Assembly: GCA_041648665.1 (NCBI GenBank)
Contig: JBAZOP010000003.1
Span: forward strand, 5,082 to 69,081
DNA from: a bacterium
GTDB taxonomy: Bacteria; UBA10199; 2-02-FULL-44-16; JAAZCA01
Direction of reading: 5' to 3'
Length of the DNA stretch: 64,000 nucleotides
The notes under the pieces were generated by a model. That model had not been told where the DNA came from. It ran no database searches and saw nothing but the letters and a program-made list of their open reading frames with translations. The stretch's first letter is position 1, and every line of letters starts with the position of its first letter. The position numbers and the translations under genes were made by a program. Positions 25,009 through 58,728 of the stretch are shown here, one piece after another.

Positions 25009-25293
25009 ATGTCCTGGCACTCCCCATCGAAGAAAGGCGGAAGGAAGATGGCAGACAAGCCGAAGCTCGACACGCGAGAAGCTCGACAGCTCACAAGCCG
25101 GGAGTGCTGCAAGATTCTGGGCGGCACGATCGGTGTCCTGGCGCAGATGGCGAGCCTTGAAGACGTGCGTACAGCGGTCCGGTGGTGGGCGGAGACAGAA
25201 GAGGTCTGGACTGCGTACGCGCTCGGAGCGCCCGCGGTCGATGCAGCAACTCAGGACGCCATCGCGAAGGTCCGAGGTTCCGGAGACAGCTGA
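25009..25293 (+). CDS. hypothetical protein
   Basis: 94-aa ORF. Confidence 0.4.
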   Translation: MSWHSPSKKGGRKMADKPKLDTREARQLTSRECCKILGGTIGVLAQMASLEDVRTAVRWWAETEEVWTAYALGAPAVDAATQDAIAKVRGSGDS

Positions 25294-25433
25294 TGACCCT
25301 GGAGTTCGCCAAGTTCGAGTTCAAGCTCCAGGACTTCTGGGTCGGCGTGTTCTGGAAGCGACGCGGCGAGTGGCTGGACGTGTGGATCTGTTTTCTCCCC
25401 TGCCTACCGCTTCACCTCGTCCTTCGCGTATAA
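25293..25433 (+). CDS. small hydrophobic protein (46 aa)
   Basis: ATG overlaps the upstream stop. FWVGVFWKRRGEWLDVWICFLPCL. Confidence 0.3.
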   Translation: MTLEFAKFEFKLQDFWVGVFWKRRGEWLDVWICFLPCLPLHLVLRV

Positions 25434-25440
25434 TCTCCGC

Positions 25441-25767
25441 ATGTTCATCGTCCAGCGCGACCCCTACCCTACTCGCCCGCTCTTCCACCATGCTGCGACC
25501 AGGGAGCCCGTGTTCGCCCCGAACCCGTGGTATCACCCCGGGTTGCATGGGCTCGGGCTCATGATCGTCCAGGACGACGCAGGCCGCACCACGGGCATCA
25601 TCAGGAAGTTCGAGAGCCCATACCACGCGTACCGGCACTACAACCCGGGCTTCCATGGGCTGGGCGAGATGGACACGAGCACCAAGATGCTCATCGGGTG
25701 CGGGGTCGCGCTTTGTACCTTGATTTTCGGCCTCGCTGTCATGGAAGGCGCGTACGGCAAGCGGTAG
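25441..25767 (+). CDS. small membrane protein with duplicated NPxYHPGxHGLG motif
   Basis: NPWYHPGLHGLG and YNPGFHGLG copies, with a C-terminal TM (LIGCGVALCTLIFGLAV). Confidence 0.45.
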   Translation: MFIVQRDPYPTRPLFHHAATREPVFAPNPWYHPGLHGLGLMIVQDDAGRTTGIIRKFESPYHAYRHYNPGFHGLGEMDTSTKMLIGCGVALCTLIFGLAVMEGAYGKR

Positions 25768-37085: not shown

Positions 37086-37595
37086 GTGGTCGAGCGAGCA
37101 ATCTCCGACGAAGAAGCGTGGGAGGTGCTGGAGCCTCACTGGCGGCTCGTCACCGAACGGTTCGAGAGGAAGGGCTTCGACGTGGACGGCTTCGGTCGGT
37201 TGGTGATCGATAGCTCGGCGCACGACTCGTGCAGGCACTTCGCCAAGACGTACACGGACGCGAGCGAGGTCATGCTCGCCCCCGAGATGGTGCACCTGCC
37301 CGTGCCGTCGATCCAGGCCATCATGGCTCACGAGCTGGGCCACGTTGTGGATGTGTCCAGGCCTGGGTACTGCTGGTACCGCAAAGGGGCGCTGGTCATC
37401 CTGCCCGAGCTTCCATCGAAAGGACTCCGCAAGCTCCTGCGTCAGTGGCAAGAGCGATCGGACGATGAGGTGGAGCGTGTGGCCGATGCGATTGCAGAGG
37501 TCGCAATGGGGCAAAAGATCGGCTATGTTGGCTCAAGCTCCTGCCTCGTCGAATGTCTCGGCAAGGGCAAGGCGCGACCAAAGGGGCTTCGATGA
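37086..37595 (+). CDS. HExxH zinc metallopeptidase-like protein
   Basis: IMAHELGHVVD. Confidence 0.45.
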   Translation: MVERAISDEEAWEVLEPHWRLVTERFERKGFDVDGFGRLVIDSSAHDSCRHFAKTYTDASEVMLAPEMVHLPVPSIQAIMAHELGHVVDVSRPGYCWYRKGALVILPELPSKGLRKLLRQWQERSDDEVERVADAIAEVAMGQKIGYVGSSSCLVECLGKGKARPKGLR

Positions 37596-37963
37596 ACAAT
37601 AGCAGCGTCGATACGAAAGAGGCGGAGAGCGCGCCCGTTTTTCCGGCGAGCGTTATCGGTGCGATGGCCGATGCGGTGAAGGATGATGAGTCCGAGCCGA
37701 TGTCGGACGAGGAGTTCTGGGCGAAGCTGACGGAGATGGCCACCCGGCTCGTCAAGCTCTGTGAAATCGAGCGCGACGTGATCAACGCGCACGAGCAGCG
37801 TGTCCTGGCTGCGCGAAGGTTTGCCGCAGCGATGAAGCGCGGGGACAAGCAGGACGCGACCGCGCAGCTGATTCGGTGGAGTCAGCTTGCCCCTCGCGTC
37901 GAGCATCACACCAGCCGTCTGACCACCGCGGCAGCGGAAGCACTTGCCGAGATCGAGGGTTGA
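37592..37963 (+). CDS. hypothetical protein
   Basis: Start is MNNSSV, overlapping the previous stop. Confidence 0.35.
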   Translation: MNNSSVDTKEAESAPVFPASVIGAMADAVKDDESEPMSDEEFWAKLTEMATRLVKLCEIERDVINAHEQRVLAARRFAAAMKRGDKQDATAQLIRWSQLAPRVEHHTSRLTTAAAEALAEIEG

Positions 37964-37965
37964 GG

Positions 37966-38418
37966 ATGGACGCCGATCGCATCACGGGGAATCTGTGGGT
38001 GGGCAGCGCGCCTCCGCCGAGTACGGGGCTTCGCCAGAAGTTCGACGTGCTCGTGCTGTGCGCGGAGGAGTACCAGCCGAAGTCGTACAACTTCCCGGGC
38101 GTGACCGTTGTGCATGCGGGGTTCGACGACACGCAGGAGCTGAGCCGCAAGGACAAGCAGGTTGTGCAGTCCGCGGCGTACCTCGTTCGGCAAGCGCTCG
38201 ACCGGAACATGCGTGTACTTGTCACCTGTCACGCCGGGCTCAACCGTTCAGCGCTTGTCGCGGGGCTCGCGCTGCGGCTCCCCGGGCGCGGGCGGTCCAC
38301 GCCTTCCTGTATGAATGGGGACGAGGTCGTGCACTTGCTGAAGTCGCGACGCGACCCCAACGCGCTGATGAACCCCCTCTTCCAGAAGATCGTTCGGCGG
38401 GCTCAGGTGTGTCGATAG
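37966..38418 (+). CDS. dual-specificity / Cys-based protein phosphatase
   Basis: VLVTCHAGLNRSA is a CX5R P-loop signature, in a protein of DUSP size (150 aa). Confidence 0.6.
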   Translation: MDADRITGNLWVGSAPPPSTGLRQKFDVLVLCAEEYQPKSYNFPGVTVVHAGFDDTQELSRKDKQVVQSAAYLVRQALDRNMRVLVTCHAGLNRSALVAGLALRLPGRGRSTPSCMNGDEVVHLLKSRRDPNALMNPLFQKIVRRAQVCR

Positions 38419-38567
38419 ATTGTTCGATACCCGGCCTTGACGCCGCGCGATCGATGCGTACTATGCGGGTAGCAGCTTGCTCCTGCTTGAGTGGCCCGAT
38501 CGCCCGCAACGGCGATCGGGCTTCTCGCTATTTGGGGTTCTGAGCGCCATCGCGTAGAATCAGGGGC

Positions 38568-39107
38568 ATGCCGCTCCTCCTGACGAACGACGGGACCGCC
38601 TCCCTGGGCACTTTCAAGGGCACCCCGCAAACCGTTGCGCTGATGCGGGACTACGCGCTCGGCCCTGATGGCGAGCAGAACTTCTTCGTGCGGCAGTGCA
38701 CAGAAGCGATCATCCGGGACGTTTCGCCCAAGGACTACCTCTCCGAGATCCTGGCGCTGTACGGCTGGGCGAAGTCGCCCTTCCTGCGGTACACGAACGA
38801 CGCGCTGCATGTCGAGCAGGTGAAGTCTCCCTTCCGGGTCCTCACCGAGGTCCAGAAGACCGGCAAGGCCCTGGTGGACTGCGACTGCGTGACCGTGCTG
38901 CTCGCGACCATGGGGCTCGTGCTGGGCAGGGAAGTCGAGTTCGTCGTGGCGGGGTTCATGACCCCCGGCGTTTACACCCACGTGTTCCCTAGAATCCGTG
39001 AGCCGCGAAGCAAGGAATGGATCATCCTGGACACAGTTGCGGGCACCCGGGACGCTGAGATGGCCAGAAAGATCGTCACTTTCAAGACGTACCCCGTGGA
39101 TTCCTGA
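38568..39107 (+). CDS. putative transglutaminase-like / Cys peptidase-fold protein
   Basis: VDCDCVTVLLATMG is a candidate catalytic Cys segment. Confidence 0.25.
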   Translation: MPLLLTNDGTASLGTFKGTPQTVALMRDYALGPDGEQNFFVRQCTEAIIRDVSPKDYLSEILALYGWAKSPFLRYTNDALHVEQVKSPFRVLTEVQKTGKALVDCDCVTVLLATMGLVLGREVEFVVAGFMTPGVYTHVFPRIREPRSKEWIILDTVAGTRDAEMARKIVTFKTYPVDS

Positions 39108-39155: not shown

Positions 39156-39500
39156 ATGACCACAGTGTTTATCCCGGCGAAGAAGGCTCCGAGGACGCGG
39201 CTTTCCGGTTTCGGCGGCGTTTCGAGCCAGTCAATCTTCATGGCGACAAATAGGCCGAAGCCGATTCCTCGCGGGATGGGCGCGGCTGACGGCGCGGCGC
39301 TGGTGTCCGCAGCTCTGCGTCGTCCGCTTCAGGGTCTCGGCGCGCAGATGATCGCGGCCAAGTTCAACCCGATCCAGGCGCAGTTCACGCCCGTGAGCAC
39401 GTCTACAGACGGCGGCTCCACGACGGCGTGGCTGATCGGCGGGGTGGTCATCATCGCAGCGGTTGGTGGGCTCGTCTACCTGAGCACGAGGAAGAGGTAG
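39156..39500 (+). CDS. small tail-anchored membrane protein (TM followed by STRKR)
   Basis: C-terminal TM (WLIGGVVIIAAVGGLVYL) followed by a basic end. Confidence 0.4.
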   Translation: MTTVFIPAKKAPRTRLSGFGGVSSQSIFMATNRPKPIPRGMGAADGAALVSAALRRPLQGLGAQMIAAKFNPIQAQFTPVSTSTDGGSTTAWLIGGVVIIAAVGGLVYLSTRKR

Positions 39501-39504
39501 CGTC

Positions 39505-40377
39505 ATGAAGGTAGCCCGCTTCGGCCCTACTCCGATTTGCGGCGAGCCGCCCGCTGTGCCGAGTCCGTACGACGTGCAGCCCGGCGGCATGAACATGCAG
39601 GCGATGAGGCAAAGTACCATGCAATACGGAAGGCAGCTTCGTGGGCTCGGGGGCGGAGGCCACCATGGGGGCGGCGGTCATCACGGTGGGGGTGGCCACG
39701 GTGGCGGCGGAGGTCACCACTGGGGTGGCGGCGGGATGTACTGGGGTGGCTACCCGTACTACGACGGTCCGCGCACGGGCTTCTTCGAGACCGTGGTTGC
39801 CGACTGCGGTCCGAACTGCATCTGGGACGGCTACTCATGCCTGTGCCCGGACATGCCTCCGAAGCCGATCAAGCCCGAGGCCCCTGCCGCGGTGAAGGGT
39901 CTGCTCGGCCTGGGCGCGGTGCCACGATCGAAGTACCACCACGACTCGTGGTCGGGCGACGATCCCGCGGTGCTCGAAGCCGATGAGCAGGACGACGCGG
40001 TCGGCAACGGCATCTTCGACGGCGCGGGCGCGGCCCCTGTGCAGCACGCTGGCAACGGCGTGTTCGAGGCGAGCTACGCGGAGCCGGGCTACCTCTACAG
40101 GGAGCGCTTCGGGCAGCCCAGCGAGATCCTGGACGCGACAACGGGCAACCCCATCGTCTACCACCCCAACGCGGGACAGTCCTCGCACGAAGACATCCTG
40201 CGCACGTATCGCAGGTGGGACCTGGAGACGCCGCGGCACTACGGTCCCGCGCGCACGCCGCTCCAGGGGCTCGGGCAAGGGGCTTCCGAGACGACAGCTC
40301 TTCTGCCGTACGCCGTGGGAGGGATCCTTCTCGGCGTCGCGGCAGGCATCCTCTACACGGTCGTGAAAGGCAAGTGA
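39505..40377 (+). CDS. Gly/His-repeat protein with C-terminal TM
   Basis: Low-complexity GGGGHHGGGGHHGGGGHGGGGGHHWGGGG. C-terminal TM (LLPYAVGGILLGVAAGILYTVV). Confidence 0.45.
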   Translation: MKVARFGPTPICGEPPAVPSPYDVQPGGMNMQAMRQSTMQYGRQLRGLGGGGHHGGGGHHGGGGHGGGGGHHWGGGGMYWGGYPYYDGPRTGFFETVVADCGPNCIWDGYSCLCPDMPPKPIKPEAPAAVKGLLGLGAVPRSKYHHDSWSGDDPAVLEADEQDDAVGNGIFDGAGAAPVQHAGNGVFEASYAEPGYLYRERFGQPSEILDATTGNPIVYHPNAGQSSHEDILRTYRRWDLETPRHYGPARTPLQGLGQGASETTALLPYAVGGILLGVAAGILYTVVKGK

Positions 40378-40378
40378 C

Positions 40379-40753
40379 ATGGACGGCCTTGGCTCATACT
40401 TCAAGTCCTCGCCTCTCGACGGCGTTGCGATGGGTGCCTACTACGCTTCGCCGGTCCCGGCGATCGTCGCGCCCACCCCGATCCTCACCAAGTCGATCCA
40501 GCCCATCTCGTCTCTCGCAGGGACGAGCGGTCTGAGTTCGTTCGGGACAGGATCAATCCTGACCGTGGTGATTGCTGCGGCAGCCGGGTACTTCGTCGGC
40601 AAGCAGCTGGGCTACCCGGTCGCAGGCGCAGTCGCAACGGGGCTGCTCGGCTTGCCCGGCATGCTCGGCGTTGCGGTGTACTCCTCCTACAAGAGGAAGG
40701 GGCTCGCGGTTGCCAACCGCCGTCGCAGCCGTCGTCGTAGGAGCCGCCGATGA
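40379..40753 (+). CDS. Arg-tail membrane protein family member
   Basis: TM helix followed by YKRKGLAVANRRRSRRRRSRR. Confidence 0.5.
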   Translation: MDGLGSYFKSSPLDGVAMGAYYASPVPAIVAPTPILTKSIQPISSLAGTSGLSSFGTGSILTVVIAAAAGYFVGKQLGYPVAGAVATGLLGLPGMLGVAVYSSYKRKGLAVANRRRSRRRRSRR

Positions 40754-41367
40754 GCAAGAATCTCGCATGCTCGAACTGGTGCCAGTTGAACAGCAAGGGC
40801 AGCAGCGACGCGTACCTGCTGTGCCTCAACAAGTGCCCGCAGGAAGGCGTGAAGTGGTCGCCGCCGTCCTCGCTCACGTTCACGGGCAAGACGACTTCCG
40901 GGGTCAGCGTGCCCAGCCCGGTGGCCACGGCCTCCAAGACGATCTCGTCTTCGTCGATCACCCGGCTGCTTCCGACGAAGCCCGCGCCCAGCTTGGTCAT
41001 CGCGGGCAAGGCCTCTTCGGCGACCGCTGAGCAGAGCGCGCCGCTTCCCGACAGCATCTCCCCGTCGCTGGACCCGGGCCCAGGTCCGGGGATGGAGGCT
41101 GAGCTTCCGCCGTCCTGGCTTTCGCAAAACAAGCTGCTGGTCGCGGGGATCGCAGCCGCTGCCATCTTCGCGGGCGTGATGGTCGTGAGAAGCCGGAAGC
41201 GCGCTGTGGCGAATGGGGTAGCGTGGATCGACCGCCTGATTGCCCAGCTGGATGAGCCCAGCAAGCCGATAACGAAAGCCGAGATGAGGGCTCTCAAAGC
41301 CAAGCTCAGGAAGCGATTCAAGCCCGAGACGGGAAAGAGGAAGCGTCAGAAGAGGAGCGGTAGATGA
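40750..41367 (+). CDS. Cys-rich membrane protein with basic C-terminus
   Basis: TM (LLVAGIAAAAIFAGVMVV) followed by SRKRAVANG and a KRKRQKRSGR end. Confidence 0.45.
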   Translation: MSKNLACSNWCQLNSKGSSDAYLLCLNKCPQEGVKWSPPSSLTFTGKTTSGVSVPSPVATASKTISSSSITRLLPTKPAPSLVIAGKASSATAEQSAPLPDSISPSLDPGPGPGMEAELPPSWLSQNKLLVAGIAAAAIFAGVMVVRSRKRAVANGVAWIDRLIAQLDEPSKPITKAEMRALKAKLRKRFKPETGKRKRQKRSGR

Positions 41368-41720
41368 ACGCACTTGGAGCAGCCTTTGGCATATACGACC
41401 CTGCAAAAGTCGTTCGCGCGGCGAAGAACTTCATGGCCGTCACGGGCGGCGACGTGTCCACGCATGTCGTTGCAGCGCGGGCAGGGCTTCGCGGTCTCGG
41501 TGCGGATCCTGCCCCGGCCCCGGCTCCTGCAACGAGCACGGCAGGGGCGGGCACGGTGCTCGCCGTTGTGGGCGGGATCGTGCTGGTGGTGGTCGCGCTA
41601 CGCGGGGCAGCGGGCTGGTACATCGGCAAGCAGTTCAAGCGCCCGTATCTGGGGATCGCCGCGGGTGCGATCGGCGGCGCTCCTGGTCTCGGAATCCTTT
41701 CTCTCTTCCCCGGTAGGTGA
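41364..41720 (+). CDS. small membrane protein
   Basis: 118 aa with two hydrophobic segments. Confidence 0.4.
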   Translation: MNALGAAFGIYDPAKVVRAAKNFMAVTGGDVSTHVVAARAGLRGLGADPAPAPAPATSTAGAGTVLAVVGGIVLVVVALRGAAGWYIGKQFKRPYLGIAAGAIGGAPGLGILSLFPGR

Positions 41721-41723
41721 TTC

Positions 41724-42452
41724 ATGCCGCGCTACCTCCCCATCCGTTCGCCCTTCTACGCGCAGTTCGAGCGCTGGCCGTACACGCGCGGGCCGAACTA
41801 CACGCGGGCGATGTTCCGCGAGCAGGGGCCGGGCGGGTACTTCACGGCGCAGCCGATGAACCGGATGCCACCGCTTCTGGGGCTCGGGTACGTGGGGACG
41901 GGGGAGACTCCTGAGAACTGCACGAAGATTTGCACCGATGGGTGTGGGTCGCTCGACAAGGACTGCTTCAACGGCTGCTACAGCCAGTGTATGGGCATTT
42001 CGGTCCCTGTGACCCCCGACAACAAGAGGGAAGGCGAGACCATCGACTGCAACGCCGCGTGTGCTGGGAAGACCGGAGAGGCGCTCTCCAGGTGCGTGTT
42101 CGATTGCGGCACCGGACGCGCTGTACCGAAGTCTGCGCAGGCCGGTTTCTTCGCGGACTTCTGGTCGAGCCCGGTCAAGATGGTCGGCACGCTCGCCGTT
42201 GTGGGCGGGCTGCTGTGGTGGGTGACGAGCAGGAAGCGAGCGACGGCGAACCCTACGAAGCTCCGCGCTGGGGACACGGTTTATTTTCTGAGCGGGGAAA
42301 GAGAAGGGAAGCTCGCTCGCGTATCGAAGCGGTGGAAGGACAAAAACGGGCACGTTTGGGTGATCTTGAGGGAGCGCGAACCGGGCGCTTGGCAATGGCG
42401 CGCGCGCGAAAGGGATGTTCTCCGGTACGCGGTGAGCGTAGCAACTTTCTGA
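41724..42452 (+). CDS. Cys-rich membrane protein, family-related (SRKRATANP after TM)
   Basis: Multiple CxxxC pairs, a TM (LAVVGGLLWWV), then SRKRATANP and an extra C-terminal domain. Confidence 0.45.
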   Translation: MPRYLPIRSPFYAQFERWPYTRGPNYTRAMFREQGPGGYFTAQPMNRMPPLLGLGYVGTGETPENCTKICTDGCGSLDKDCFNGCYSQCMGISVPVTPDNKREGETIDCNAACAGKTGEALSRCVFDCGTGRAVPKSAQAGFFADFWSSPVKMVGTLAVVGGLLWWVTSRKRATANPTKLRAGDTVYFLSGEREGKLARVSKRWKDKNGHVWVILREREPGAWQWRARERDVLRYAVSVATF

Positions 42453-42462
42453 GGAAATCACG

Positions 42463-43116
42463 ATGAACAAGCACGGCGGCATCTTCAACGCTCTGTCTTC
42501 TCTCGGCTGCGCAGTCGGCTTGGGCGCAGACGCTCCGATCAAGAAGTCGTGTACGTTCGCGACGGGTCTGTACTCCGAGGGCGCGAAGGCGATCCAGCAG
42601 GTGCTCATCAGTCGCGGGGCCACCAAGCTCAAGGCTGACGGGCTGTGGGGACCGTGTTCCGAGAGCGCGTTCGAGAAGGTGACAGGCGGCAAGCTGACCC
42701 AGGCATCGATCCTGGCGCAGTTCAACATCAGCTGTAGCCCGTACATCAAGAACGTGATCGGCACGTCGTGCAGCAACGGCACCGACGCCTATACGCCGCC
42801 TGCCGTGAGCCCGGACGACATCTCGCCCAACATCCCGCCTACCGAGAAGGCTCCTCCTGTCGGCACCGTCGTGTGCCCCCCTGGCACCGATCCGATCATG
42901 CAAGGCACCCAGGTCATGTGCCAAGCGCCGGTCGTGGCGAACCAGCCTCCTCCCCCCGTTGTGGCCCCCGTGCGCGCGAACCTGATTCCCGGCGTGCCCA
43001 ACATGTACCTGGGCATCGGAGTCGGCGTGCTGGTGCTCGGCGGGCTTGCGTACTTCATGCTCAAGCCGAAGACGGCGGCGGCGAATAGGCGGCGGCACCG
43101 AAGGCATCACAGGTAG
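42463..43116 (+). CDS. Arg-tail family: PG-binding-like Cys-rich protein, TM, then AAANRRRHRRHHR
   Basis: N-terminal MNKHGGIFNALSSLG, DGLWGPCSESAFEKV (PG_binding_1-like), TM helix and poly-Arg/His tail. Confidence 0.55.
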   Translation: MNKHGGIFNALSSLGCAVGLGADAPIKKSCTFATGLYSEGAKAIQQVLISRGATKLKADGLWGPCSESAFEKVTGGKLTQASILAQFNISCSPYIKNVIGTSCSNGTDAYTPPAVSPDDISPNIPPTEKAPPVGTVVCPPGTDPIMQGTQVMCQAPVVANQPPPPVVAPVRANLIPGVPNMYLGIGVGVLVLGGLAYFMLKPKTAAANRRRHRRHHR

Positions 43117-43173
43117 CCGATGGATGGCGTCTTCAACACCAACTCGAATCGGTCGTAGACAAAGGACACGGAC

Positions 43174-43938
43174 ATGTCGATTTTTGGAAGCCGAAAGAAG
43201 CAGCTGCGCGGATGCGGATGCCAGGGCGTCGGCCTGGGCGCAGTCGAAGTGCCGTGGTGGTGCTGGAGTACCGAGGGCTTCAAGGCATGTTCCGACGAGT
43301 CCCTCTCTTGGGCGCAGAACGCGTGCAAGGCCGACTGGGAGAACGGTGAGAAGGTCACCAACTCGGTCAACAACGAGCCGTACGCGAACTACGCCGACTG
43401 TGTGGCGCGCACTCAGCAGTACAGGTTCGAGAATGGCTGCATGCCCAAGTGCCCCTCGCAGCAGCCTGGGACGGCGACCACGGCAACGACAACCGGCGGC
43501 TCCGTCGTGTGCCCTCCTGGCCAGTGGCCCGACGCGTCATTCAACAGCTGCGTGAAAAGCTCTGGGGCGTGCTCCGACGCGAACGTGATCAAGAGCGTGC
43601 AGGCGCAGATCGGCACCACGGTGGACGGCAAGTGGGGTCCGAACAGCGCAGCAGCTCTCAAGGCATCCGGCAAGACGTACCAGCAGCTTGCCCCCGGGTG
43701 CTCAGGAGCGGTGCCCGGCGGCGGCACGGGTGGAGGGAGCGGCACGTACAAGCCCCCTGCGACAACCAAGACGCCGATCGGTACGCAACCGGGAGTCGCG
43801 CAGGCCAGCGGTTTTCTCGGCATCCCGCTCATCGCGTGGGCCGGGGTCGCAGCAGTCGCGGGCGTACTGCTGTACGCGAAGTCGAGGAAGAAGCAGGCGG
43901 TCGCAAACAGGCGTCGTCGGCGTCACCATCGCAGGTAG
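43174..43938 (+). CDS. Arg-tail family member (AVANRRRRRHHRR)
   Basis: VDGKWGPNSAAALK PG-binding-like segment, TM and tail. Confidence 0.55.
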   Translation: MSIFGSRKKQLRGCGCQGVGLGAVEVPWWCWSTEGFKACSDESLSWAQNACKADWENGEKVTNSVNNEPYANYADCVARTQQYRFENGCMPKCPSQQPGTATTATTTGGSVVCPPGQWPDASFNSCVKSSGACSDANVIKSVQAQIGTTVDGKWGPNSAAALKASGKTYQQLAPGCSGAVPGGGTGGGSGTYKPPATTKTPIGTQPGVAQASGFLGIPLIAWAGVAAVAGVLLYAKSRKKQAVANRRRRRHHRR

Positions 43939-43947
43939 GAGACCACA

Positions 43948-44694
43948 ATGAGTCGCATGGGAATCTTCACGGCGCTCAACGGCGCAGGCTTCGGCGGCTT
44001 CCTGGGGCTCGGCCTGACGCCAGCAGAGCAGTACGCGGCAACGTGCAAGCAGAACTGCGAGAACATCCCCGGCACGCAGACCGTTGCGGAGTGCCAAGCC
44101 GACTGCGACAAGTTCACCGCCGCTGCGGTGACATGCGCTCCAGCGTGCGCACAGTTTCGCCAGGACTCGAACGAGTGGGTCTACTGCATCCAGAAGTGCC
44201 ACGGGCTGACCCCTTCGCAGGCGTACGACGAAGCGCAGAAGTCGCTGTGTTCCAAGCAGGGCATGACGTACTCGTGGCTTGAGAACAAGTGCGTCGATAC
44301 GAACGCGTATAAGAGCTGTCCCGCTGGGACCGTCTACGCGATCTACCCTGACGGCAATCGGTGCATCGGCATCAACACCGATCTGACGAAGACGACGTGC
44401 CCTGCTGGCACCTCTCTGAAGATCGTGCCGTCCACGACTGGGGGGCCATCGGGGCAGGCATGTGTGTCCCCTGTGACGCCGACCCCTGCGAAGAAGACGC
44501 CTGTTCCGGTGAAGCCCAATCCTGTCATCGTAGGAGACGGTGGCGGCGGGGGCGGGACCTTGCTTGCTGGCATGGGCACCGGCTGGATGCTCGTGGGCGT
44601 CGGCGCGCTTGCGCTCATCGGAATCGTCGTGCTCGCGAAGAAAAAGAAGAAGCCGCTGGGCGCTGCGCCCAACAGGCGGCGAAGAAGGAGATAG
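43948..44694 (+). CDS. Arg-tail family member (AAPNRRRRRR)
   Basis: MSRMGIFTALNGAG N-terminus, Cys-rich domain, Gly run, TM, KKKKK and tail. Confidence 0.55.
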   Translation: MSRMGIFTALNGAGFGGFLGLGLTPAEQYAATCKQNCENIPGTQTVAECQADCDKFTAAAVTCAPACAQFRQDSNEWVYCIQKCHGLTPSQAYDEAQKSLCSKQGMTYSWLENKCVDTNAYKSCPAGTVYAIYPDGNRCIGINTDLTKTTCPAGTSLKIVPSTTGGPSGQACVSPVTPTPAKKTPVPVKPNPVIVGDGGGGGGTLLAGMGTGWMLVGVGALALIGIVVLAKKKKKPLGAAPNRRRRRR

Positions 44695-44696
44695 TC

Positions 44697-45350
44697 ATGC
44701 GTGAGGGCGGCATTTTTGATCTTCCGTCAGCGCTCGGCATCGAAGTCGCGATGAGCGACGCCGTCACCGAGATGGACAGCTGCAACCTCTCCGGGACGTT
44801 CTCTGAATCGGCCCAGTGGCTCCAGAACCTCCTGAAGGAGAAGGGCGCACTGTCCCTCGTCGTGGACGGCAAGTGGGGGCCGTGCTCCGAGAGCGCGTTC
44901 TACGGACTGTTCGGCGTTCGCACGAGCCAAGCCTCCGTTGCGGAGAAGACCGGCCTGTCGTGTGCGAAGTTCGTGAACTACTACGGTACCGTTGGCGGAA
45001 ACTGCAACGGCAGCGACATCATCTACGAGCAGCAGGGTACGCCGCCTCCCGCTCCGACCGGGACGAAGAAGGTCGCCGTCATCAAGAAGGCTGAGCCCAA
45101 GCCGGTCAGCCTTTCCGTGGTGAAGTCCCCGTTCAAAATGGCGACGGCAACGCCCCCCACACAGGTCGTGCAAGCCGACACAGCTGGCACTTCCAAGACG
45201 TGGATCTACGTGATCGGAGGGCTCGCGCTGCTCGGCATCGTCGGCTTTTTCTTCCTCAAGAAGAAGTCCCCTGCTCCGGTCGCGCCGCCCCCCGCCATCC
45301 CCAACAGGCGTCATCGCCGCCGGTCTCACCGCATTCGGCTTCTCAAGTAA
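44697..45350 (+). CDS. Arg-tail family member (AIPNRRHRRRSHR)
   Basis: MREGGIFDLPSALG N-terminus, VVDGKWGPCSESAF, TM and tail. Confidence 0.55.
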   Translation: MREGGIFDLPSALGIEVAMSDAVTEMDSCNLSGTFSESAQWLQNLLKEKGALSLVVDGKWGPCSESAFYGLFGVRTSQASVAEKTGLSCAKFVNYYGTVGGNCNGSDIIYEQQGTPPPAPTGTKKVAVIKKAEPKPVSLSVVKSPFKMATATPPTQVVQADTAGTSKTWIYVIGGLALLGIVGFFFLKKKSPAPVAPPPAIPNRRHRRRSHRIRLLK

Positions 45351-45514
45351 CCCGCGCCAGACGACCGTCTCTTGTTGGAACGGGCCACTGTCCTGCGTCT
45401 TCGGGGCGATTGAGTCCGGGCTTCGACATGGGCCGCGGAATCTAGCCGTTGCGGGCTCAGTGTCAAGGCCTCGTGCGCTGGACGAAACCCGTCATCCCGT
45501 GGATAATCAGGCCC

Positions 45515-46384
45515 ATGGCTAATCGTGGTGGCATCTTCAAGGGTACGGCTCTCGGGCTTCTTGGCGCTGGCAGCATCGAATGCACGGGCACGACGCTGTT
45601 CAACGCGGTCAAGGCTGCACTTGTGGCCAAGGGCTACACCGGGCTCGCTCTCAAGAACAGCTGGGACGGCTGCTTCCAGGCGGCGATCGTCAAGGAGCTT
45701 GGTCATCCGATGCTCACGGTCGGCGACGTGCGTACGCTCACCGGCAGCGGCTGCACGAAGGGCTACTTCGATGCGGGCCTGAACGACATGAACCCGCTCG
45801 TCGCGGGCGCTGGGCCGACCGACGTGGCCTCGTGCTCGGACGGAAGCGACGTGAAGGGCAAGCTGCCGACGACGATCGATCCGTCTGGACCGCTGAGCAC
45901 GGACTGCTTGGGTGGCTGCGCGAAGCTGCCGTTTCTGTCTGCGGACTGGCAGGGGTGCGTCACCAAGTGCGGCGGCAGCATCCTTCAGCCCCCGGCTCCT
46001 ACGCCCGGCACTCCCGCGTGCGCTCCCGGGATGTTCTACGACACGAACGCGGCCAGCTGCATGCTCATGATCGATCCGCTCAACTGCGGATCGAAGTGCA
46101 ACCAGTTCCCGGCGTTCAGCTCCGAGTGGGTACAGTGCATGGTCAACTGCGGCGCGAAGGCAGTCGGTCCGCAGGGCACCCCCGTTGTGGTGCCCGGCAC
46201 GAACCCTCCCGTGAAGACCGGCATGTCGATGGCAGACGTGTTCGGCAAGAACTGGCTGGTCATCGCCGCAGCGCTTGCGATCGGTGTCGGCGCAGTCGTC
46301 TACTTCAACAACAAGAAGCGGAAGGAACGACTGGGGGCAGTCGCAGCGCCGAACCGAAGGCGTCGCCGTCGTCATCACCGCTAG
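45515..46384 (+). CDS. Arg-tail family member (AAPNRRRRRRHHR)
   Basis: MANRGGIFKGTALG N-terminus, Cys-rich domain, TM and tail. Confidence 0.55.
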   Translation: MANRGGIFKGTALGLLGAGSIECTGTTLFNAVKAALVAKGYTGLALKNSWDGCFQAAIVKELGHPMLTVGDVRTLTGSGCTKGYFDAGLNDMNPLVAGAGPTDVASCSDGSDVKGKLPTTIDPSGPLSTDCLGGCAKLPFLSADWQGCVTKCGGSILQPPAPTPGTPACAPGMFYDTNAASCMLMIDPLNCGSKCNQFPAFSSEWVQCMVNCGAKAVGPQGTPVVVPGTNPPVKTGMSMADVFGKNWLVIAAALAIGVGAVVYFNNKKRKERLGAVAAPNRRRRRRHHR

Positions 46385-46393
46385 GAGATCACC

Positions 46394-47395
46394 ATGCCGC
46401 TGTCCGATGTCGAATCGTTGGCGAAGCAGGTGCAGCCGCTCTACCCGGAGATGGCGACGCCGGAAGATCGGCTCATGGCGGCGTACAAGGCCGCGCGCGC
46501 AGCGTTGATCGAGACGTTGCCCAAAGGCACGACCGTTGATCCGTTGGCAGCAACGATCGCGCAGCAGACCGTGGAGCAGCAGTTCGATGCGCGCGTCCCG
46601 GCTCTTCAGTCGTCCTTCCAGAACAACACCGATCTCTCGGCTGACGATGCGGCGAAGCTGACCGCTGAGCAGAGCAGGCAGCACTACCTGTACAAGTACC
46701 TCATCGCGTGCGACGGGCTCGGCCTGTACGCGAGCGGGTACGCAAAGCAGCTCGATGCCAACGGGGAGTTCCCGGGCGACTACAACAAGAGCGTCGAGGA
46801 CAGAATCCGCATCTTTTCCGAGATCACGCATGCGCACGGGACAGGGGCACTCGTCGGTCTGGTGAACAACGAAGCCGTCGTGCAGCAGGCTGCCCAGCGA
46901 GCCGCGATGTCGGGGCTCGGCGGAGTCGGGCAGGGGCAGGTGACCACGTTCATCGGATCCAAGGGCATGACGATCACCCTGCCGTCTTCGAGCGGCGCAG
47001 CCGGGCTGGGCGCACCCTTGCCATGGCAGGCCTGGGTTTTGATCGGTGTCGGCACCATCGTCGCAGGCGTCGTCATCTACCTGCTGGGAAGCAAGCGGAT
47101 CGAGACGACAGCTGAGACGACCAGAATCATCTGCCTCAAGCTCATCGAGAGCGGGGACAAGGCAGCCGCCAAGAGCTGCATCGACCTCCAGAAGGAAGCG
47201 ACAAACATCGGCGGCGTTGGCGACATCATTGGCAAGGAGACCATGCAGACGCTCACGAAGTACGCGTTCGTCGGTGGTCTGCTCATCCTCACCGTGATGT
47301 TCCTGCCGACGATCGTGGGCTCCGTCACCCAGGCGCAGACGACGTACCAGATGCACAAGGCTGTGCGCGCGGCAGCGAACCGTCGAAGGCGATGA
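46394..47395 (+). CDS. Arg-tail family member, divergent (AAANRRRR)
   Basis: 333 aa with two TM helices and a C-terminal KAVRAAANRRRR. Confidence 0.5.
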   Translation: MPLSDVESLAKQVQPLYPEMATPEDRLMAAYKAARAALIETLPKGTTVDPLAATIAQQTVEQQFDARVPALQSSFQNNTDLSADDAAKLTAEQSRQHYLYKYLIACDGLGLYASGYAKQLDANGEFPGDYNKSVEDRIRIFSEITHAHGTGALVGLVNNEAVVQQAAQRAAMSGLGGVGQGQVTTFIGSKGMTITLPSSSGAAGLGAPLPWQAWVLIGVGTIVAGVVIYLLGSKRIETTAETTRIICLKLIESGDKAAAKSCIDLQKEATNIGGVGDIIGKETMQTLTKYAFVGGLLILTVMFLPTIVGSVTQAQTTYQMHKAVRAAANRRRR

Positions 47396-47796
47396 TGCGG
47401 TACTCGGTCCACAACGTGATGCGCGGCGGGTTCGACTACTACGACGGGCCGGATGTCACTCCGATCAACGATGACCAGCCCACGCCCTCGTTCGACTCCT
47501 CCATCCGCACCCCGCTCGGGATCCCCGCGAGCCTCGCAGGCAGGCCTCTGCCTCCCAACGCCTCCATCCGCGGGCACGGCGCGACGGCGCAAGGCGCGGT
47601 GTCTTCGGGCAAGCGCGGATCGTGGTCCACCACCGCAGCCAGGAATGGCGGCATGCCGTCTGGCATCGGCGCTGCGCTCGGGCTCGACGACTCCACGAGC
47701 AGGATGCTCCAGGCCGTTGTGGGCATCGTGGGGTTCGCCGGAATCTTCTATCTCATCACCCGTTTCGGCGACAGGGAGCGTAAACGTGTCCGCTAG
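47392..47796 (+). CDS. small membrane protein with basic C-terminus
   Basis: TM (VVGIVGFAGIFYLI) followed by GDRERKRVR. Confidence 0.4.
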   Translation: MMRYSVHNVMRGGFDYYDGPDVTPINDDQPTPSFDSSIRTPLGIPASLAGRPLPPNASIRGHGATAQGAVSSGKRGSWSTTAARNGGMPSGIGAALGLDDSTSRMLQAVVGIVGFAGIFYLITRFGDRERKRVR

Positions 47797-54186: not shown

Positions 54187-54960
54187 ATGGCCCAGTATCC
54201 CCCGGCCAACGTGTGCCCGGCCACCCCGGTCGGCCCGACTTCTGCGATGCCCGGCGGCGGGATCGCACCCGGAGACATCAAGCGAACGCTGGAGCTTGCG
54301 GGGCCGTTCTCTGCGTACACGCGGCACCCTGAGCTTGAAGACTTCGAGCAGATGTTCCGCGTCGAGCCAGACGACAGCTGGTTCTCGGTCGATAGGTCAC
54401 CGAACAGCCCGATCCAGTTCGAGATCGCGGCGGTGACGACGGGCGACAACCAGATGCTCTTCATCTACGACTACTCGGTGCAGGTGTTCGGCTTCTCCGG
54501 GATCAACGCTCACGACTTCGAGCCGTTGGAGGACGGGCGGCACTCGGGCGCGTTCGGCTACGTGCTCAGAATCAACGGACGGTCCCCCGGGGCCCTTCAC
54601 TACCGGCTCGACCCGGTCTCCCCGAACCTTCGCCCGATCGCTATCCAGCTTCAGGGTGCGTGGCCGAACCCTACGGCCATCCCCGGGCCCGACCCGTACG
54701 CGCGGGCCCTCGCGGACCAGTTCGCGTCCTCTGCTGGCTTCGGCGCATCCATCCATCCCCAGAGCCCGGGGAGGTTCGGCGCGCACAACGCGAAGTTCAC
54801 GCTGTTCGTACAGCCGAATCAGGCCCTGGACGTGACAGGCGTGATCTTCAACATGATCGAGAGCCCCATCGCATTCATCCAGGCGAGACTCAGCGGCTAC
54901 GTGTGCTCGGTCAACCTTGGCAACAAGATTCTGGCTGACATGCGATCCTGCCTGCGCTAG
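54187..54960 (+). CDS. hypothetical protein
   Basis: GTGAGGTAAC immediately precedes the ATG. 257 aa. Confidence 0.4.
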   Translation: MAQYPPANVCPATPVGPTSAMPGGGIAPGDIKRTLELAGPFSAYTRHPELEDFEQMFRVEPDDSWFSVDRSPNSPIQFEIAAVTTGDNQMLFIYDYSVQVFGFSGINAHDFEPLEDGRHSGAFGYVLRINGRSPGALHYRLDPVSPNLRPIAIQLQGAWPNPTAIPGPDPYARALADQFASSAGFGASIHPQSPGRFGAHNAKFTLFVQPNQALDVTGVIFNMIESPIAFIQARLSGYVCSVNLGNKILADMRSCLR

Positions 54961-55057
54961 TTTGGGATCTTCCGGCCCTGGTGTAGAATCGAGACTCCTG
55001 CGGAGGCAGCGCAAAAGCCCGAGCAGACCCTGGATCGATCTACATCGGGGCCACTTC

Positions 55058-56005
55058 ATGCAAACACCCGCATCGTCAGGATTCAATCTCACGCGCTGGT
55101 ACTTCTACGCAGACGCGGAGAGTACGAAGCAGGCCGCGTGGTCCGTGGACAGGGACGCGCTGTACGTCGTGCGCTTCTTCGTCAAGAACTGGAGCCGGGA
55201 GTCGCAGCTCTCAACGAGCGGGGGAGCAAGCGGCAGCAGCTGGAAGCTGTTCAAGAACCTGTGCGGCGTTCTCGCGCGAAGCATCGAGCGGTACACGGTG
55301 CGCGGCGTGACGATGCTGCATGTCGCGAAGATGACCGATCAGATCGGCGTGCTCGCCCCCCTCTGGAGCCTTGATCGTCTTGGATGGATGGACACGGACG
55401 AAGGCTCGTGGATCATCGATCTGGTGATCAGGGCAGATGACGACCAGACCATCTTCAAGCCAGAACTCGGGGTATGGACCGCCGAAGTTGCAAAAGCGCT
55501 TGCGGGAGCAGGGTACCAAAGCCCTTCTGTCCACGTCATGGGCATCGTTACGCTTCATTGCGGACCGAGCACTTCGGTATGCAGGCTCAACACCCCACAG
55601 GACTCCACTCCGGAAATCACAGCCGAGGTCGAGTCGTACTGGATGGGGATGCCAGACCTGATACGCGTCACGCTTCCGAAGGCGGAGCTGGATGCCGGGA
55701 AGACCGAGCCCCATACCGAGCTTCTCGACCCGTACGTGGACTGGTCAACGAAAAGGAGCTGCATCGGCTACGGCGGCGCGCAGTACGCTATCGGGCTTCA
55801 CGACCACATCGGCCTGTACGGCGAGCTGAAGCCCATCTTCGAGTGCTCTGGGACGAAAGAGACGATCCTGGACGACATCGCGAAGGCGGTGCCGAAGGCC
55901 GCTGCCACCGTGGCTGGCTTTTCGACGAGCCAGAAGATCGTGGTCGGGATTTTTGTCCTCGCGGGCTTCGTGATTGGAGTGAAATGGCGTAGAATGCGCG
56001 TATGA
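55058..56005 (+). CDS. protein with C-terminal TM and basic end
   Basis: Start MQTPASSGF. C-terminus KIVVGIFVLAGFVIGVKWRRMRV. Confidence 0.4.
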   Translation: MQTPASSGFNLTRWYFYADAESTKQAAWSVDRDALYVVRFFVKNWSRESQLSTSGGASGSSWKLFKNLCGVLARSIERYTVRGVTMLHVAKMTDQIGVLAPLWSLDRLGWMDTDEGSWIIDLVIRADDDQTIFKPELGVWTAEVAKALAGAGYQSPSVHVMGIVTLHCGPSTSVCRLNTPQDSTPEITAEVESYWMGMPDLIRVTLPKAELDAGKTEPHTELLDPYVDWSTKRSCIGYGGAQYAIGLHDHIGLYGELKPIFECSGTKETILDDIAKAVPKAAATVAGFSTSQKIVVGIFVLAGFVIGVKWRRMRV

Positions 56006-56441: not shown

Positions 56442-57419
56442 ATGGACCTGAAGTGCGTTGCAATCAACGTCGGTGCGGTAGCTCTCGGGGCGTATGCGGG
56501 GTACAGGTTCGTGCCCGGCCACAAGAAGGTTGGCGCTGCGGCGGGTGCTGCGGGAGGATTCGCGATTGCGTCCTTCTTGCTCGGCTGCAAGCTCTGGGAT
56601 GAAACCCCGGTCATGGTCGCACTGCCTGCGACGCCTGAAGGTGTCCCGACGACGCCTCCGATCCTTCAAGCGATCAGCCCGGACGGAGCGCCGATGCTCA
56701 CTCCCAAGCCGCTGATCGTTCCGGCGAAGACGTTCAAGCTGCCGTTGACGTTCAGCAAGACTGTCATGCCCACCCAGATTGCCCCGAGCGGGTCCGGGCT
56801 CTCCACACTCGTCGCGAGGTTGCAGGCCGGGATCGCAAGCGCGATGCCGGGGGCGAAAAAGGTCGCCGTCATCAAGCAGACGCAGCCCGTCAGCATCAAG
56901 CCCGCGGGAGTCATCACGCAAGAGCAGCTGTACAAGACTTGCTACGACGGGTGCATCGTCGAGCACAAGGGCCAGTGGAGCCCGAACATGTGGCTCTACT
57001 GCGAGAGGACATGCAAGGAGCAGACTGGCCTGCCTCAACCGGTCAGCCAAGTGCAAGGGGCGCAGATGAAAGACCCCGCGTGCATGAAGGCGTGCAGCGA
57101 CAATAACCCAGCCGACTTCATTGCCTCGGGCATGTGCAAAGACCGCTGTCCCGTGATCACCGTCTCGTCAGGGACGCTCTCCAATCTACTTGCGCGCGCC
57201 TCCGCGGTCCTGACGCCATCGAAGACTACGGCTTCCCCGGCGGCTGTGCCCGCGTACGCCCCGAAGCAGACTCCTTCGGCGGTATCCACCACAAGCTCTG
57301 TGGTGGCTCCGTCCTCGACGGGCGTGTTCCGTCTGGTTGCTGCCCCCACGACGAACACGTCGAAGACGAGCATCCCAGCTGGGACTTCGGCTGGGGTGCA
57401 GCCGGTGCCGGTGACCTGA
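56442..57419 (+). CDS. Cys-rich membrane protein
   Basis: N-terminal TM helices, then a Cys-rich region (CYDGC...C...C...C). Confidence 0.45.
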   Translation: MDLKCVAINVGAVALGAYAGYRFVPGHKKVGAAAGAAGGFAIASFLLGCKLWDETPVMVALPATPEGVPTTPPILQAISPDGAPMLTPKPLIVPAKTFKLPLTFSKTVMPTQIAPSGSGLSTLVARLQAGIASAMPGAKKVAVIKQTQPVSIKPAGVITQEQLYKTCYDGCIVEHKGQWSPNMWLYCERTCKEQTGLPQPVSQVQGAQMKDPACMKACSDNNPADFIASGMCKDRCPVITVSSGTLSNLLARASAVLTPSKTTASPAAVPAYAPKQTPSAVSTTSSVVAPSSTGVFRLVAAPTTNTSKTSIPAGTSAGVQPVPVT

Positions 57420-57619
57420 TGCTGGGCGCTCTTCTCATGAACGGGCGGGTACAGAAGTACGCCAAGTTCGCGTTCGGTCTGAGAGGCAGCGACGTGCGCG
57501 ACCTGGACAGCTACGGCATCCCCGTCTGGTCGGTCGTGCTCGCATCGTTCGTCATCGGCGGCTACGTGACCCTGCGGTTCGCACCGAACTTTCTGGTGGG
57601 ATGGGTGCGACCGAAGTGA
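57419..57619 (+). CDS. small membrane protein (66 aa)
   Basis: In-frame ATG overlapping the upstream stop. TM (VWSVVLASFVIGGYV). Confidence 0.3.
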   Translation: MLGALLMNGRVQKYAKFAFGLRGSDVRDLDSYGIPVWSVVLASFVIGGYVTLRFAPNFLVGWVRPK

Positions 57620-58332: not shown

Positions 58333-58728
58333 ATGTTCTACAAACACCAAGCAATCCAGCCGACCCCAGGCCTCGCGTTCGAGGCCTTCGATCGCCGGTA
58401 TCGCAACCCGATGATGCCCCAGCAGGCATACAGGCCGCGCGCGGCGGGCCCGGAGTTCCTGGCCACAGACGGGACCGACCACGCGTACATGACCGCGTTC
58501 CGGAGCCGCAACCCGGTGAACCTTCGAGGCTTCGGGCTCGACGTGAACCAGCTGCTCGGGGATCAGGTGGGTCAGGTCATCGACGCGGCGATCGAGCGTA
58601 GCTGGCCCAAGATCCAGGTGAAGCTCAACGAGAGCCTCAAGCCCGTCATGTACATGCTCGGAGCCGCCGTCCTGCTTTCTGCCGCGGGCGCGACGCTGTC
58701 CTACCTCACGTACTCGAAAAGGGCTTGA
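58333..58728 (+). CDS. hypothetical membrane protein
   Basis: C-terminal TM (VMYMLGAAVLLSAAGATLSYL). Confidence 0.4.
   Translation: MFYKHQAIQPTPGLAFEAFDRRYRNPMMPQQAYRPRAAGPEFLATDGTDHAYMTAFRSRNPVNLRGFGLDVNQLLGDQVGQVIDAAIERSWPKIQVKLNESLKPVMYMLGAAVLLSAAGATLSYLTYSKRA

Follow-up and report, generated by a model that had tools for sequence, protein, structure and literature searches.

Cysteine-based dual-specificity phosphatases (DSPs) are well studied in eukaryotic viruses, where the poxvirus enzyme VH1 is packaged in the virion, and metallopeptidase domains of the DUF4157/eCIS_core family ride on contractile injection particles. In phages, a J-domain protein is known from the T4-like phage RB43, whose Rki (ORF 057w) stimulates the ATPase of the host DnaK (PMC3486835), and our literature searches on phage DSPs and anti-defence phosphatases found no functional study of phage DSPs. 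Here we analysed a 64,000-nucleotide stretch (the window; about 63% G+C) of a 134,065-bp contig, a high-GC (about 63%) phage-like genome. An initial annotation had reported at positions 37086-39107 of the window a cluster of host-manipulation enzymes, formed by an HExxH metallopeptidase, a CX5R dual-specificity phosphatase and a Cys-peptidase-like protein, together with a J-domain protein at 57631-58323. All four open reading frames (ORFs) and their motifs are located where they had been reported, and the four signals are family-level and conserved, not chance short motifs. We call the proteins HExxH, DSP, TGL (a transglutaminase-fold Cys-His-Asp enzyme) and J. Judged by their distribution and genetic context, however, they are products of four genes with different evolutionary histories and do not form a single host-manipulation cluster. 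The reading that we favour, with moderate confidence, is that the interval is a mosaic in a phage-like genome, in which an operon of HExxH, a small ORF (X) and DSP lies in a variable island, DSP is mobile, TGL is a core gene and J is an independent co-chaperone. All substrates and biological roles proposed below for DSP, HExxH, TGL and J are ones that we infer.

The organization of the interval (Table 1), in which ORF support was taken from third-position GC, suggests two transcription units. Together with g35501 and g36573 upstream, HExxH, X and DSP (the last two separated by 2 nt) would make up an operon with tight packing and translational coupling, and TGL is very probably transcribed separately, because of the tight HExxH-X-DSP packing, the 149-bp gap that follows it and the promoter-like boxes in front of TGL. 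One of these boxes, TAGAAT at 38555-38560, ends 7 nt before the TGL ATG, a spacing of the leaderless type. The seven TAGAAT copies of the window are all on the local coding strand, and in five of them the distance from the end of the box to the ATG of a long ORF is 6-7 nt; at most of these sites a TTTGGG/TTTGAG-like element is found about 17 nt upstream of the box. We rejected TAGAAT as a globally enriched word (7 occurrences for 4.9 expected), as it is non-random only in its position relative to start codons. When the motif is relaxed to TAnnAT, ORFs of 100 or more codons have such a box 6-7 nt ahead of their ATG in 11 cases, compared with 0-3 at six control spacings. This spacing is, as a sequence pattern, the signature of leaderless mRNAs, and TGL and the gene starting at ATG 39156 have one box each; it may reflect leaderless translation in the host or a sigma factor of the virus itself. 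TGL would thus be transcribed from its own leaderless-type promoter, heading a run of genes for tail-anchored membrane proteins. The region between g35501 and TGL is a variable island, as the related locus L007 has about eight additional genes, including RusA, between its g35501 homologue and HExxH.

The protein described as Cys-peptidase-like turned out to be, by model and alignment, a transglutaminase-fold cysteine enzyme with a predicted Cys105/His138/Asp155 triad. The window TGL has no Pfam match at E <= 1, and so lies under the threshold of Transglut_core (PF01841), but the triad is invariant in the 29 aligned sequences of its family, for which we found 52 close homologues. PF01841 is recorded in the precomputed annotation of 7 of these 52 and was found in six ORFs of relatives, and P0289, P0296 and P0283 reach 43-59 bits. 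The AlphaFold2 (AF2) model (pLDDT 89, pTM 0.84) matched by Foldseek 3ISR, PNGase and BDI_1141 with a probability of 1.00 and LapG and PeiW with 0.98-0.99, as well as Rad4 and PeiP, and viral proteins of BFVD with a TM-score of up to 0.78. A three-helix N-terminal region with an invariant PKDYLSE motif is specific to the family, which extends to 4,955 relatives at E <= 1e-3 among 1.84 billion representative proteins.

TGL also led to the relatives of the window, 24 IMG/VR viral contigs of 20-180 kb, mostly 95-180 kb. About 20 loci share a core order in which a 4-Cys protein and a coiled-coil protein of about 850 residues precede TGL, followed by a membrane protein similar to g39505 and, about 5 kb further on, by the w47453 domain. 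With tblastn, g39505 has homologues in 28 loci, in each case 0.2-4 kb downstream of TGL, and among the genes inserted between the two in relatives Pfam recognized only an HNH endonuclease. The sub-clade of the window is rearranged: its genes for the 4-Cys and about 850-residue proteins now lie on the other arm, dispersed from TGL. Searched as profiles against the PDB, the about 850-residue protein had a low-complexity coiled-coil match only and the w47453 domain had none; we recognized no function for these two or for the 4-Cys protein. In g39505 itself, a Gly/His low-complexity tract, GGGGHHGGGGHHGGGGHGGGGGHHWGGGG, occupies residues ~48-80, and conservation in the clade is confined to residues ~133-257. 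These distributions place TGL among the core genes of an undescribed viral clade (95-180 kb), and not among accessory genes for host manipulation.

Several TGL relatives are split by an insert of 150-350 residues with a Hint module and, in some, a LAGLIDADG endonuclease domain. In five sequenced members (P0152, P0154, P0155, P0159 and P0173) the intein lies precisely between the Asp and the catalytic Cys (...D | C-intein...(Q/N) | CDD...), and in P0167 and P0179 an intein is recognized by domain matches. Inteins are typically found at the active sites of conserved, important proteins; their position at the catalytic Cys argues that Cys105 is functional and that TGL is under strong constraint. 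Our search of the literature on inteins in transglutaminase-like proteins found nothing relevant. TGL is most likely a protease, isopeptidase or cross-linking enzyme, which would act in virion- or envelope-associated assembly, in entry or on the cell wall. It is possible, although on the whole unlikely, that its role is lysis, as a peptidoglycan endo- or isopeptidase with the downstream tail-anchored proteins as holin- or spanin-like partners. In favour, the fold resembles that of pseudomurein endoisopeptidases (PeiW and PeiP, among them the enzyme of phage psiM2), Pfam and PHROGs recognized no other lysin among about 70 window proteins, and TGL, which has its own promoter, is universal in the clade and is always followed by a membrane protein. 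However, generic transglutaminase-fold proteases, PNGase and Rad4 are better matches to the fold, TGL carries no cell-wall-binding domain, and in relatives it mostly follows the large coiled-coil protein instead of lying in a lysis cassette; moreover, GH25 and PG_binding_1 proteins are encoded no more than 10 kb from TGL in relatives, which hence have conventional lysins too.

The phosphatase keeps its predicted catalytic residues. The P-loop, VLVTCHAGLNRSA, places Cys88 at nt 38227-38229 and Arg94 at nt 38245-38247 (C88-HAGLN-R94-S95), and the 150-residue protein read from ATG 37966 is identical to NCBI WC683_02390 ('MAG: hypothetical protein WC683_02390 [bacterium]'), encoded by the 134,065-bp contig; a longer ORF starting at GTG 37876 was rejected as the gene since the NCBI protein is identical from ATG 37966. 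We found 81 homologues, most of them with a precomputed PF00782 match, and in the 26 that were aligned D55, C88, G91, N93, R94 and S95 are invariant; neither the Cys nor the Arg of the P-loop is lost in any of them. The family also has invariants of its own in this alignment, an LCAEExQP motif and, within a C-terminal ALxNxxF motif, N136 and F139. D55, 33 residues before C88, is at the general-acid position, and in the alignment with VH1 it falls in the D-loop region. The protein matches PHROG 10650 ('dual specificity phosphatase') with an E value of 1.4e-10. A profile of the family retrieved from the PDB chains of protein tyrosine phosphatases (PTPs), dual-specificity phosphatases (DUSPs), PRLs and VH1 with E values of 5e-12 to 1e-5, archaeal PTPs being the best (5e-12). 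DSP is therefore, as far as its alignments tell, a Cys-based phosphatase of the VH1/atypical-DUSP type with an intact predicted active site, with Cys88 as the predicted nucleophile, Arg94 and Ser95 in the P-loop and Asp55 as the general acid. Three homologues (P0008, P0028 and P0038) bear a Cys/His-rich N-terminal extension of about 50 residues (C..P..GC...FC..H...APAGQRGGWLSAEKRR), which could be a zinc finger or serve for targeting.

DSP is most likely made inside the infected cell, where it would dephosphorylate host (or viral) phospho-Ser/Thr/Tyr proteins and thereby blunt kinase-based signalling or kinase-based defence; such interference with host signalling is plausible. An action on a non-protein substrate, such as RNA 5'-tri- or diphosphate ends, an anionic lipid or a phosphorylated nucleotide serving as a defence signal, appears rather improbable to us. 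The DSP fold serves all such substrates, with the RNA 5'-end phosphatases baculovirus BVP and PIR1 and the enzymes of anionic lipids PTPMT1 and PTEN, and in this direction point the presence of PTPMT1 among the matches of the family profile (E 5e-5), the many membrane proteins encoded in the window and a weak Pfam match of the window protein to the polymorphic-toxin DSP-PTPase family. Against it stands first the invariant Asp 33 residues before the Cys, a general acid expected for phosphomonoester (protein) substrates, the RNA-triphosphatase branch of DSPs not being known to have this residue. In addition, the P-loop, CxxGLNRS, lacks additional basic residues such as those of PTEN and PTPMT1 and is similar to the CVAGVNRS of VH1, and PADLOC, run on 10 proteins, gave no matches. 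The spacing of the Asp and the composition of the P-loop would therefore be the pattern of protein-directed DSPs, not that of the RNA-triphosphatase or lipid branches.

The distribution of DSP differs from that of TGL. At least 107 contigs of IMG/VR, 6-529 kb long, carry the family according to an alignment-based scan, and the viral loci with DSP are mostly high-GC, with a median G+C of 62%. Among 83 viral loci we found no conserved partner, such as a kinase; the best recurrent neighbour family is present in 11 of them, and larger antisense 'neighbour families' were rejected as shadow ORFs of the DSP gene itself. DSP adjoins TGL only in the window, L005/6 and L007/9/37, and lies 25-80 kb away from it in other genomes of the TGL clade. 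Along this synteny HExxH and TGL are 41-58% identical, which is above the conservation of DSP: the DSP of the window shares 45% and 36% identity with those of the syntenic relatives and 47% with those of unrelated phage-like contigs, one of which has an integrase and one a beta-clamp gene. On these comparisons, DSP thus behaves like an accessory gene that moves horizontally and on its own among large, mostly high-GC phages. The initial annotation had considered a phosphatase signature and a J domain uncommon in bacterial viruses. This holds for cultured phages, as DSP-like genes are present in 8 and J domains in 36 of 50,697 records, many of the latter being jumbo phages; it does not extend to uncultivated viruses, in which DSP is recurrent, nor is a phage J-domain protein new, given Rki.

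The metallopeptidase-type call made for HExxH can be kept, in the weaker form of 'zincin-like', because the structural matches are weak. Its 16 homologues, 45-99% identical, all retain H82, E83, H86 and D89 (H82-E83-L-G-H86), and the alignment has 38 invariant columns, which include the HExxH, D89, H46, C49, R50, H51 and C153 as well as the HDxCRH and DDEVERVAD motifs. In the AF2 model (pLDDT 84.5) the motif lies in helix 73-91, and Foldseek matched the minigluzincins selecase, abylysin and jannalysin (E 0.025-0.1, probability up to 0.99) and, lower and weakly, Wss1, ImmA/IrrE-like proteins, CapP and ArdC; sequence and profile searches of the PDB gave no significant match. HExxH is thus predicted to be a small soluble zincin-type metallopeptidase. 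Its gene is found with g35501 and g36573 in the sub-clade of the window and in L039, with g36573 homologues directly upstream in L005/6 and L007/9/37, and it occurs without DSP in L038 and L039, a pattern that suggests a sub-clade-specific gene travelling with its two upstream genes. ORF X had no domain match (Pfam, PHROG, NCBIfam, PADLOC) and no tblastn match in the syntenic relatives, and the g35501 protein had no Pfam, PHROG, NCBIfam or PADLOC match.

The position of the operon, downstream of and on the same strand as the gene for a protein with a head-spike-fibre domain, raises the idea that HExxH and DSP, possibly with TGL, are packaged in the virion and delivered with the genome, which we regard as improbable. 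The best single-sequence PDB match of DSP is the poxvirus H1/VH1, over its full length (E 0.007), but the family profile scores archaeal PTPs, DUSPs and PRLs above VH1. HExxH is just above the cut-off of Pfam eCIS_core/DUF4157 (PF13699; 22.6 vs 22 bits), but only 2 of the 16 family members match this domain (E <= 0.01), so that eCIS_core membership was rejected as a robust assignment, and no contractile-injection genes were recognized near HExxH. The C-terminal end of the HExxH family, RPKGLR (last six codons, 37575-37592), is near-invariant and could be a docking or recognition tail. DSP lies amid small ORFs, helix-turn-helix (HTH) regulators or an integrase in the unrelated phage-like contigs L001-L004, which are typical early or accessory regions, and no recognizable capsid or tail genes flank the cluster. 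Finally, a regulatory protease of the ImmA/IrrE/CapP type, cleaving a repressor or sensor such as the Cys-rich g36573 product or a host regulator, is a very doubtful identity for HExxH: the constant pairing with the upstream 169-residue Cys-rich protein in three lineages and Foldseek matches to PprI/IrrE, Mycobacterium ImmA-like regulators and CapP (E 0.1-1.4) speak for it, but these matches, none of them significant, rank below those to minigluzincins, no HTH partner was recognized, and the PDB profile search gave no significant match.

The J-domain call is firm, with a Pfam DnaJ match (PF00226) over residues 171-226 (1.3e-13, 51.2 bits for a cut-off of 27.8) that contains the HPD at H197-P198-D199, with NCBIfam matches to the DnaJ and DjlA J domains and with PF00226 also in the precomputed gene call of L120. 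A Cys-rich stretch precedes the J domain (residues 83-125, from C83 to a CWEC motif). By analogy with Rki of RB43, J would be an independent accessory co-chaperone, its HPD stimulating the ATPase of the host DnaK, and recruitment of DnaK is plausible. The gene does not belong to the physical cluster, because it is 19 kb away from the other three, and no relative of the J protein turned up when IMG/VR was scanned with a peptide pattern, a search that reaches only close relatives.

The initial annotation took these proteins as one module acting together on the host, rewiring Ser/Thr/Tyr signalling and proteostasis in an actinobacterium or a myxobacterium. HExxH, DSP and TGL are indeed adjacent on the same strand, in an order that recurs in two related lineages (L005/6 and L007/9/37), and their catalytic motifs are intact. 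Yet the module does not hold together outside these lineages: about 20 other members of the clade have TGL beside other, conserved core genes and with neither HExxH nor DSP, no neighbour of DSP is conserved, HExxH can occur without DSP, TGL has its own promoter and J is distant, so that we give this idea very little credence. The cultured phages with DSP-like genes are all actinophages, infecting Mycobacterium or Rhodococcus, and leaderless-type promoters fit Actinobacteria; together with the high G+C, these features are compatible with an actinobacterial host. However, the metagenome-assembled genome (MAG) bins of relatives belong to four different phyla (Pseudomonadota, Pirellulales, Saccharibacteria and Nitrospirota) and, being contradictory, were rejected as a source of host assignment. 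An actinobacterial or myxobacterial host is thus a guess.

Several observations weigh against the mosaic that we favour, or against the assignments on which it is built. The window DSP scores 26.7 bits with Pfam DSPc (PF00782), under the gathering score of 33.5, and the residue before its catalytic Cys, usually His, is a Thr (T87), invariant in the 26 aligned sequences. For HExxH, the zincin fold match is weak (best E 0.025, TM-score 0.37/0.55) and for the third zinc ligand there are only candidates (D89, E128 and E130, all invariant). The fibre gene, 2.2 kb upstream, and the borderline eCIS_core match leave room for a virion-borne HExxH or DSP. No kinase gene was found in the window, and a viral kinase/phosphatase pair is therefore unsupported. 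Finally, no capsid, portal, terminase or tail family was recognized in the 64 kb with Pfam and PHROGs or by tblastn against cultured phages, and the role of TGL consequently has no anchor in a known morphogenetic module.

Table 1. Features of the window discussed in the text (positions in nt of the window; residues in amino acids).
Feature	Position	Strand	Remarks
4-Cys core protein, ~230 aa	17275-17958	-	four invariant Cys
~800-850-aa core protein (803 aa in window)	14266-16677	-	R/E-rich coiled coil, Pro-rich linker
Fibre-like protein, 862 aa	32257..34845	+	NCBIfam NF048003 'phage head spike fiber domain' (GTA/phage), 1.8e-24, residues 693-858; phrog_34853, 8.8e-9
g35501, 365 aa	35501..36598	+	syntenic with HExxH gene in sub-clade: L005/6, L007/9/37, L039 (tblastn, synteny)
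g36573, Cys-rich, 169 aa	36573..37082	+	stop 3 nt before HExxH GTG start
HExxH zincin-like protein, 169 aa	37086..37595	+	GTG start; H82/E83/H86 at nt 37329-37343
ORF X, 123 aa	37592..37963	+	ATG overlaps HExxH stop (ATGA)
DSP, Cys-based dual-specificity-type phosphatase, 150 aa	37966..38418	+	D55, C88, R94, S95
Intergenic spacer, 149 bp	38419..38567	+	promoter-like sites TTGACG-16-TACTAT 38437-38464; TTTGGG...TAGAAT 38555-38560
TGL, transglutaminase-fold Cys-His-Asp enzyme, 179 aa	38568..39107	+	C105 at nt 38880-38882
Tail-anchored membrane protein, 114 aa	39156..39500	+	own TAGAAT box 7 nt before ATG
g39505, Gly/His-rich membrane protein, 290 aa	39505..40377	+	C-terminal transmembrane segment, residues 264-289
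w47453 core domain, ~190 aa	47453-48355	+	fixed order with TGL in relatives (loci L010-L034)
J protein, 230 aa	57631..58323	+	J domain residues 171-226, nt 58141-58308; HPD nt 58219-58227
Leaderless-type boxes (ATG positions)	25441, 28042, 34894, 38568, 39156, 56002 (+); 8533, 9620, 12779, 19544 (-)		TAGAAT/TATAAT/TAGGAT/TACTAT/TACAAT ending 6-7 nt upstream
Tail-anchored protein regions	39156-47796, 25182-25767, 54917-56005, 57134-57619, 58333-58728; 9096-9620(-), 10577-11158(-)		single C-terminal transmembrane segment

The remainder of the window is that of a phage-like virus of a bacterium, belonging to a lineage without cultured members, as deduced from the recognized functions, the IMG/VR relatives and the lack of any DNA match when 24 kb were compared by megablast with the cultured phage records. 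Gene direction switches along the window, from the minus strand (up to about 20.1 kb) to the plus strand (from about 21.5 kb on). Pfam and PHROGs matches are limited to replication, sugar-nucleotide, glycosyltransferase, sigma factor, fibre domain and DUF5661 functions, replication being represented by an AEP primase, an AAA_25 helicase and a ResIII/DEAD helicase. An NCBIfam scan gave the J domain and the fibre domain only, PADLOC found nothing in 10 proteins, the window contains no tRNA genes, and tblastn of TGL and of the 447- and 803-residue proteins against cultured phages gave no match. The source contig also encodes RecT, a YqaJ exonuclease, a single-stranded DNA-binding protein (SSB), a sigma factor and the head-spike-fibre domain. 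The 862-residue fibre-like protein, whose homologue in L005/L006 bears Laminin_G_3, is the sole recognizable virion component in the 64 kb.

Other features of the genome are recorded here as side observations. RmlA-like and RmlB-like dTDP-sugar enzymes and two to three GT4-type glycosyltransferases, one of which matches the 'GT4-conflict' family, are encoded in the window, in regions 1269-3472(-) and 58896-62277(+), with RmlC just past the window start (L121 13715-14239); these sugar-nucleotide and glycosyltransferase genes suggest a glycosylation of the virion, of DNA or of the host surface. Past the window end (L120 11079-14984) the contig encodes a 1301-residue protein with a Phage_integrase domain, then a MazG-like (PRA-PH) protein and a 698-residue SNF2 helicase, and its other end encodes RmlC, RecT, the YqaJ exonuclease, an RNase_T-type exonuclease and an HTH protein. 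The SSB gene of the same gene-call table maps inside the window, at about 3.8-4.2 kb, and the DUF5661 match is at 8612-9091(-), via L121. One window protein matches Sigma70_r2 (4.4e-10) and PHROG 1740 'RNA polymerase sigma factor', its ORF not being located by a simple motif search of the window. A single C-terminal transmembrane segment is predicted in 15 of 73 window proteins, about seven of these genes lying within 39156-47796, downstream of TGL; this abundance of tail-anchored proteins is odd for a tailed phage and reminiscent of membrane-containing viruses. We put forward, only as a tentative proposal, that the clade consists of undescribed viruses of about 100-180 kb infecting high-GC bacteria, with structural proteins unlike those of Pfam, PHROGs and cultured phages and about one fifth of their proteins tail-anchored, in which TGL would be a core component of a machinery for assembly or entry that is associated with membranes and differs from that of known tailed phages, and DSP and the zincin would be inserted accessory effectors, DSP being a possible eraser of kinase-based defence signalling.

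The phosphatase and the J domain belong to known kinds, and the less expected result, which lies outside what the initial annotation had claimed, is TGL and its viral clade. TGL offers a handle on viruses whose structural genes are otherwise unrecognizable, being both a marker gene and a testable active site. The DSP family, with its intact predicted active site and its presence in mostly large, high-GC phage contigs, is a candidate phage tool against bacterial Ser/Thr/Tyr phosphorylation, including kinase-based defence. More generally, this interval is a warning for annotation that adjacency is not function, as its three enzymes differ in distribution and in transcription signals.

Compared with described systems, J is closest in kind to Rki of RB43 (PMC3486835), as both are phage-encoded, fuse an HPD J domain to an unrelated region and have the host DnaK as expected partner. 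In the window protein, however, the J domain is C-terminal, as in the bacterial DjlA, and follows a Cys-rich, zinc-ribbon-like region, and no sequence kinship with Rki was seen outside the J domain. DSP resembles the poxvirus VH1/H1 in being a virally encoded single domain of about 150 residues with a C-X5-R-S P-loop and a G-x-N-R-S pattern, and it shares the P-loop and the upstream general-acid Asp with the atypical DUSPs (VHR/DUSP3, DUSP22, DUSP26), the PRLs and archaeal PTPs (Tk-PTP); it differs from VH1, DUSPs and PRLs in the Thr that replaces the His before the Cys, in its own LCAEExQP and ALxNxxF motifs and in its bacterial host. The 'dual specificity phosphatase / PTPc' genes of actinophages (the group of Mycobacterium phage Wildcat gp96, prophiGD54-2 gp95 and Rhodococcus phage NiceHouse gp258) are, like DSP, phage-encoded accessory genes and are 31-45% identical to it in the P-loop region and the C-terminal half, prophiGD54-2 gp95 alone aligning over most of the length; they are known as database annotations, and the window DSP belongs to a separate, metagenomic family.

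HExxH has in common with the minigluzincins and with minimal zincins (Wss1/SprT, ImmA/IrrE, ArdC) a small, soluble protein in which, in the AF2 model, the HExxH is carried by a helix that follows a short beta-sheet. It is nevertheless about 60 residues longer than the minigluzincins, reaches TM-scores of only 0.36-0.55 and has its own HDxCRH, DDEVERVAD and RPKGLR motifs. TGL, finally, shares the Cys-His-Asp triad and the transglutaminase core fold (probability 0.98-1.00) with the PF01841 enzymes, namely the Cytophaga hutchinsonii protein 3ISR, PNGase, LapG, PeiW and PeiP, and differs from them by its own N-terminal PKDYLSE region, by being a viral core gene and by the inteins that interrupt some of its members.

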